From Escherichia coli (GTDB lineage Bacteria; Pseudomonadota; Gammaproteobacteria; Enterobacterales; Enterobacteriaceae), in the NCBI RefSeq assembly GCF_003334335.1, contig NZ_QOWQ01000206.1: a stretch of 357 nucleotides of DNA; one strand, 5' to 3'. The stretch's first letter is position 1; each line of letters opens with the position of its first letter. The notes beneath the pieces are model-generated. The model did no database searches. It was not told where the DNA came from and saw nothing but the letters and a program-made list of their open reading frames with translations. Both the position numbers and the translations under genes were made by a program. Shown piece after piece: positions 1-246 of this stretch.

Positions 1-246
1 ACGCATAAACCGGTGCAGTACTATCCCGGGAAACATCCGTGCGAAAAACCGGCAGAAATGCTGCAGCAGATAATCAGCGCTAGCAGTCGTCCGGGTGACC
101 TGATTGCAGATTTTTTCATGGGGTCGGGTTCGACAGTGAAAGCGGCACTGGCGCTCGGGCGTCGTGCAACTGGCGTTGAGCTGGAGACTGAACGTTTTGA
201 GCAGACGGTCAGGGAAGTACAGGATTTAGTCAGCCAGAACGGATGA
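1..246 (+). CDS. DNA methyltransferase, beta-class N6-adenine/N4-cytosine family, C-terminal portion (5' end lies upstream of the window)
   Basis: The reading frame is open from base 1 (acg cat aaa ccg = THKP) and runs to TGA at 244-246. The GTG at 13-15 reported as the ORF start is therefore probably an internal Val codon. The translation contains two motifs that from established knowledge characterise the C-terminal half of beta-class amino-MTases: H-P-C-E-K-P (nt 34-51), matching the HP[TC]xKP motif, and D-F-F-M-G-S-G-S-T (nt 109-135), a motif I FxGxG-type AdoMet-binding loop, followed by a hydrophobic helix and a GxE segment. The catalytic DPPY-type motif IV expected N-terminal to these is outside the window. 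Target base (m6A versus m4C) and recognition sequence cannot be determined from this fragment. Confidence 0.88.
   Translation, partial: THKPVQYYPGKHPCEKPAEMLQQIISASSRPGDLIADFFMGSGSTVKAALALGRRATGVELETERFEQTVREVQDLVSQNG

Follow-up and report, generated by a model that had tools for sequence, protein, structure and literature searches.

Results

Features of the Analyzed DNA

The stretch of DNA analyzed in our study (357 nucleotides, hereafter the window) was found to contain the 3′ end of a methyltransferase gene, a short spacer with a promoter-like site, and most of a tRNA gene. The features were located as follows, where L002 is the corresponding locus of E. coli JE86-ST05.

1–246, plus strand: 3′ end of the methyltransferase gene (last 81 codons and TGA), from the open frame, NCBIfam matches and DNA identity
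34–51, plus strand: HPCEKP (HPxxKP), a conserved element that precedes motif I in beta-class amino-methyltransferases, from the translation and PDB alignment
115–129, plus strand: motif I FxGxG (FMGSG), the predicted S-adenosylmethionine-binding loop, from the translation, Pfam N6_N4_Mtase and PDB alignments
247–286, plus strand: spacer of 40 nucleotides between the methyltransferase stop and the tRNA, from the ORF and tRNA coordinates
249–277, plus strand (L002:12249–12277): putative sigma-70 promoter-like site TTGAAG-17-TATTAT, from a consensus scan (9/12 matches)
287–357, plus strand: tRNA-Ile2 with CAU anticodon, ileZ type, lacking its last 5 nucleotides, from ARAGORN, Rfam and identity to ileX

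In the ORF listing, frame 1 of the plus strand was open from the first base to the TGA stop at 244–246 and contained 81 codons; the translation of 1–246 was THKPVQYYPGKHPCEKPAEMLQQIISASSRPGDLIADFFMGSGSTVKAALALGRRATGVELETERFEQTVREVQDLVSQNG. The 81-amino-acid fragment alone matched the NCBIfam adenine-methyltransferase models with E-values of 6e-12 to 6e-11, and its HPCEKP element was aligned with the HPTQKP found in two solved beta-class methyltransferases, 9c3u and 8urk. Because of these NCBIfam matches and the presence of the HPCEKP and FMGSG motifs, the ORF was taken as real coding sequence and not as a chance frame. It is predicted to encode the C-terminal, AdoMet-binding end of a beta-class N6-adenine methyltransferase of the M.EcoGII family.

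The preliminary description of this DNA had placed the end of the gene 40 bp before a tRNA, and this was confirmed, as the stop codon occupied 244–246, the tRNA started at 287 and the spacer extended over 247–286. This spacer is not empty; it carries the promoter-like site, which fills most of the 40 nucleotides and ends 10 nucleotides before the tRNA. The site coincided with the feature annotated in phage 933W as “pT; putative tRNA promoter.” When five diverged copies of the spacer were aligned, the −10 hexamer was TATTAT in four of them and TATCAT in the fifth. Such a pT-like site could give Q-independent expression of the tRNA.

A tRNA with a CAT anticodon was found at 287–357 by both ARAGORN and Rfam (63.5 bits, gathering score 29, E 1e-13), and it opens a cluster of Ile, Arg(TCG) and Arg(TCT) tRNAs (ileZ-argN-argO). 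The label tRNA-Met, given by ARAGORN from the CAT anticodon, was rejected on the basis of the identity to ileX of E. coli K-12 (68 of 76 nucleotides) and of the existing annotation, which is tRNA-Ile in PGAP/RefSeq and ileZ in the Stx phage records. The acceptor stem was found to be GGCCCUU/AAGGGCC, including the C4:G69 and C5:G68 pairs, as in tRNA-Ile2. These two pairs are said to have been described as TilS determinants by Ikeuchi and co-workers in 2005. One non-standard pair was found by cmscan in the anticodon stem and was read as the top pair, which is A:C here and G:U in ileX. From gene Q to the tRNAs, the Rfam scan contained only three tRNAs and sub-threshold antisense matches. On the minus strand of 287–357, Plastid-ycf2 5′UTR scored 25.5 bits (36.3 in the locus), below its gathering score of 65.7, and a match to SNORD103 was also obtained; these antisense matches were taken to be artefacts of the tRNA reverse complement.

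The Full-Length Gene and Its Truncated Relatives

All 357 bases of the window were 100% identical to lambdoid-prophage loci in four complete E. coli genomes. The DNA identity was 98.6% with phage PhiR49_2, 94–95% with many Stx2a-converting phages and 93.8% with phage 1720a-02. The gene context was studied in detail in one of the four exact-match genomes, that of E. coli JE86-ST05, where the full gene was found at L002:11188–12246; it contained 1059 nucleotides, encoded 352 amino acids and was annotated “DNA-methyltransferase.” In its protein, the DPPY motif was found at residues 35–38 and FMGSG at residues 310–314, which is the motif order of the beta class. The label “beta-class” given in the preliminary description was thus correct, as DPPY (motif IV) lies N-terminal to motif I in the full-length gene. 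The Pfam scan of the 352-amino-acid protein placed an N6_N4_Mtase domain (PF01555) at residues 29–340 (E 1e-42). The protein also matched the PHROG DNA-methyltransferase families (E 1e-103 to 1e-107) and the PADLOC model MTase_II (E 3e-164), and its best PDB matches were other beta-class enzymes (E ~1e-25); PHROGs, PADLOC and PDB were concordant in pointing to a beta-class amino-methyltransferase. Among the PDB entries searched, neither M.EcoGII nor a close relative was represented by a solved structure.

The DPPY half of the gene lies outside the window, and intactness was judged from the four exact-match genomes. The ORF of the window might instead be a dead 3′ remnant, from which the N-terminal catalytic half was deleted and which is kept by the adjoining tRNA promoter and tRNA cluster. 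Such remnants do exist. In phage PhiR49_2 and in E. coli AVS0542 the methyltransferase gene is reduced to its last 297 nucleotides, and the copy in AVS0542 (L004:2450–2746) was marked by PGAP as “incomplete, missing N-terminus.” The remnant alleles are 98.6–98.9% identical to the window, and their joint lies 51 nucleotides upstream of the window start, at the equivalent of L002:~11950, so that a PhiR49_2-type remnant would give a same-looking window. In phage 933W only about the last 110 nucleotides of the gene are left (L009:~2975–3080), and the truncated 3′ remnants thus have at least two different joints. A remnant of the 933W type was excluded, as the window reaches 135 nucleotides past the 933W joint.

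Against a remnant of the PhiR49_2 type, the only 100% matches of the window were the four genomes annotated “DNA-methyltransferase,” with the full length verified in JE86-ST05, whereas the remnant alleles differ from the window at 4–5 positions (e.g., GGTTCGGG versus GGTCAGGG). The frequencies point in the same direction; the 5′ part of the full-length gene was found in 1913 of the 5426 complete E. coli genomes (~35%) and the PhiR49_2-type joint in 81 of them. The gene in the window is very probably intact, and a dead remnant is an unlikely reading of it. The PhiR49_2 remnant (L001:7968–8246; 92 amino acids) was found to be annotated “DNA adenine methylase” despite missing the DPPY half.

Comparison with M.EcoGII and Other Phage Methyltransferases

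M.EcoGII is a beta-class enzyme of 349 amino acids, encoded on a prophage of E. coli O104:H4 C227-11, and its methylation of adenine is independent of the sequence context (Murray et al., 2018; PMC5778455). It is unexpressed in the lysogen and is toxic if made constitutively; its twin M.EcoGI, in which 333 of the 349 residues are identical and 16 differ, is also completely non-specific, and the enzyme of phage 1720a-02 was named as very similar to M.EcoGII (PMC5778455). In the methylomes of O111 STEC, homologs of M.EcoGI/M.EcoGII (~93% similarity) were listed as orphan and non-specific, and the lysogens with these homologs contained no corresponding methylation motif (PMC6602927).

The JE86-ST05 protein was identical to M.EcoGII at 330 of 349 residues. 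This identity of ~95% is approximate, since the reference was a machine-read PDF copy of the sequence in Table S1 of the SUPREM paper (PMC11551740) with some reading errors; one protein was spelt both GRRAIG and GRRRAIG between this table and a sister file. The two proteins share the order of DPPY, target-recognition region and FxGxG, a length of about 350 amino acids, a prophage location and the lack of an endonuclease partner. They differ in length (352 versus 349 amino acids), in a slightly different C-terminal tail (…DLVSQNG) and in ~15–19 scattered substitutions. The gene is therefore predicted to be a close ortholog of M.EcoGII and M.EcoGI. We infer that this allele would methylate adenine in a context-free manner, as it is ~95% identical to M.EcoGII and as M.EcoGI is non-specific despite 16 differences in 349 residues.

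Among the enzymes of Stx phages, the protein identity was 96% with phage 1720a-02 (337 of 352 residues), 96% with Stx2a_1447/WGPS2 and 88% with phiP27 (gene L24). The loci of 1720a-02, Stx2a_1447, phiP27 and JE86-ST05 were alike in their order, with a small ORF followed by the methyltransferase, a spacer of 40 nucleotides and ileZ. In the three phages stx2 follows the tRNAs, whereas in the JE86-ST05 prophage the TerB, DUF3927 and SASA-esterase genes are found there. The methyltransferases of N15 (gp52), phiKO2, VHML (ORF17) and mEp460/SfV belong to the same family, with 50–82% identity over at least 95% of the length, and relatives were present in phages of Klebsiella, Yersinia, Vibrio, and Aeromonas. 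The mEp460 and N15 homologs open the late region and precede the holin, as here, but without a downstream tRNA cluster. Another phage adenine methyltransferase from prophages of this kind is that of EcoGIII, the PstI-like restriction-modification system of Stx2 phages; unlike the gene in the window, it is specific for CTGCAG, is encoded with a cognate endonuclease and is active in lysogens (PMC6602927). An identity with EcoGIII was rejected, as that is a PstI-like system with its own cognate endonuclease.

Gene Neighborhood in the JE86-ST05 Prophage

Upstream of the methyltransferase in JE86-ST05, the order was DUF968, RusA, antiterminator Q, a promoter-like site with a terminator, a 65-amino-acid ORF and a second terminator. 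The downstream order was tRNA-Ile, tRNA-Arg(TCG), tRNA-Arg(TCT), TerB, DUF3927, SASA esterase, the holin and lysozyme genes, and terminase. The gene is thus placed between Q with its terminators on one side and the tRNA, accessory (moron) and lysis genes on the other. The upstream features were located as follows.

L002:10613–10641: promoter-like site overlapping the end of Q, from a consensus scan
L002:10696–10710: strong terminator hairpin, within ~60 nucleotides of the promoter-like site
L002:10840–11037 (possible start at 10717): small ORF of 65 amino acids, phrog_331, ~150 nucleotides upstream of the methyltransferase
L002:11024–11041: second terminator, after the small ORF

The layout of L002:10613–10710 was that expected of a lambdoid pR′-tR′ unit, which would give a short terminated transcript. 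This transcript was not matched by any Rfam family. In phage 933W, the annotation gives pR′, qut and a pair of terminators as the equivalents, ahead of the tRNAs. The mEp460 and N15 homologs likewise follow Q or a promoter-terminator pair and precede the holin.

1720a-02, Stx2a_1447, and phiP27 each contained an ORF of similar size to the small upstream ORF in the corresponding position. The small ORF was 53% identical to its copy in mEp460, and gp51 of N15 is a possible distant relative (28%, E 5e-4). The small ORF had no match in NCBIfam or PADLOC, and in Pfam its similarity to winged-helix domains (TrmB, MarR, DprA_WH) stayed below threshold. It may regulate the methyltransferase or act as its partner.

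In JE86-ST05, the position behind the tRNAs where Stx phages carry stx2AB is taken up by TerB-family and DUF3927 genes (L002:12709–15778). Next comes a gene for a SASA-family esterase, as is also the case in 933W. As the slot is filled by TerB/DUF3927 genes and not by stx2AB, the JE86-ST05 prophage is read as an stx-negative relative of Stx phages with different cargo.

Absence of an Endonuclease Partner

The preliminary description had proposed an orphan methyltransferase and had suggested an inspection of the upstream DNA for a restriction endonuclease or a ParB-like domain; in the JE86-ST05 locus neither was found. None of the seven flanking proteins, ~3 kb on each side, matched the PADLOC defence/restriction models. 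The six-frame ORF list of the same locus, on both strands, contained no unannotated ORF of useful size; an antisense ORF of 168 amino acids was present inside the methyltransferase gene and is presumably a chance shadow frame. In the Pfam scan of the 352-amino-acid protein no ParB-like or other extra domain was found, the remaining matches having E-values above 0.03. A ParB-methyltransferase fusion was ruled out, N6_N4_Mtase being the sole Pfam domain.

The same solitary layout was found in five further phage loci, namely 1720a-02, Stx2a_1447, phiP27, mEp460, and N15. The proposal of an orphan enzyme was therefore borne out, as the gene was solitary in every genomic context examined. The gene might otherwise belong to a conventional Type II restriction-modification system, as the modification partner of an endonuclease gene that lies upstream; the upstream sequence does lie outside the window, and the PADLOC model that matched best is a generic one, “Type II methyltransferase.” However, the JE86-ST05 locus contained no restriction or defence match among the neighbors within ~3 kb on either side and no sufficiently large unannotated ORF, and the layout was solitary in six phage and prophage contexts, JE86-ST05 included. 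Furthermore, the literature describes near-identical enzymes as non-specific orphans (PMC5778455, PMC6602927), and a non-specific enzyme would leave no possibility of a cognate site-specific endonuclease. The Type II reading is extremely improbable and is effectively refuted.

Discussion

In our study, a gene of the M.EcoGII family was found at the head of the late region of a lambdoid prophage. We hold it probable, with good confidence, that it is an intact, solitary beta-class N6-adenine methyltransferase of a Stx-phage-like lambdoid prophage, orthologous to M.EcoGII/M.EcoGI and with a role in anti-restriction. In the lysogen the gene would be silent, since transcription from the late promoter would be halted at the terminators. 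After induction, RNA polymerase modified by Q would read through these terminators and the enzyme would then be made together with the late genes. It would methylate adenines across the replicating phage DNA before packaging, and in the next host the progeny DNA would be resistant to the many restriction systems of Types I, II, and III that are sensitive to adenine methylation. The role would be one of broad-spectrum anti-restriction and not that of one half of a restriction-modification pair. Late expression and anti-restriction were offered only as a likely explanation by Murray et al. (PMC5778455); for the present gene, we infer both the late timing and the anti-restriction benefit.

The physiological target might also be RNA (rRNA or tRNA of the host, or the phage tRNAs encoded next to the gene), or the enzyme might have an epigenetic role in induction, with no protection of DNA. 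M.EcoGII methylates RNA and DNA:RNA hybrids in vitro (PMC5778455), the methyltransferase gene directly adjoins tRNA genes, and a small winged-helix-like ORF is conserved just upstream of it. The 16S rRNA is the target of a different Stx-phage methyltransferase, gp5 of phiPA8, which works together with a small partner protein and regulates induction through this rRNA (Gong et al., 2023; PMC10810198). This enzyme is likewise a solitary Stx-prophage methyltransferase, and its initial annotation was DNA adenine methylase. However, gp5 belongs to the unrelated MT-A70 family, contains a DPPW motif, requires its partner protein PNB-2 and is encoded at the opposite end of the phage genome (PMC10810198). 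An identity of the two was rejected, as the gene in the window contains DPPY in a PF01555 domain and is sited between Q and the tRNAs. The initial rate of M.EcoGII is also ~90-fold lower on RNA than on DNA (11.12 on DNA vs. 0.12 on RNA; PMC11551740 supplement), and the mEp460 and N15 homologs are found away from tRNAs, so that the tRNA linkage is no property of the family. An RNA target or an epigenetic role in place of DNA protection is very improbable. A broader variant was given the same low standing: it is highly doubtful that during lytic growth the enzyme acts on RNA besides DNA (the co-transcribed phage tRNAs or host rRNA) with the phrog_331 ORF as its dedicated partner or controller. 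If true, the methyltransferase and the phrog_331 ORF would parallel the gp5-PNB-2 pair of phiPA8.

The gene adds one more copy to a family that is very common and already characterized, and for which the orphan reading was already known. It carries little weight as a discovery, as the family is sold as a reagent (EcoGII methyltransferase) and is used in chromatin footprinting. For annotation, the label of functional methylase should be withheld from the truncated remnants, which occur commonly in Stx phages (933W among them), and the CAU tRNA is to be annotated as tRNA-Ile2 and not as tRNA-Met. The pT promoter-like site and ileZ move as one unit with the 3′ end of the gene. The role of a context-free adenine methylase that heads the late operon is presumed to be anti-restriction.
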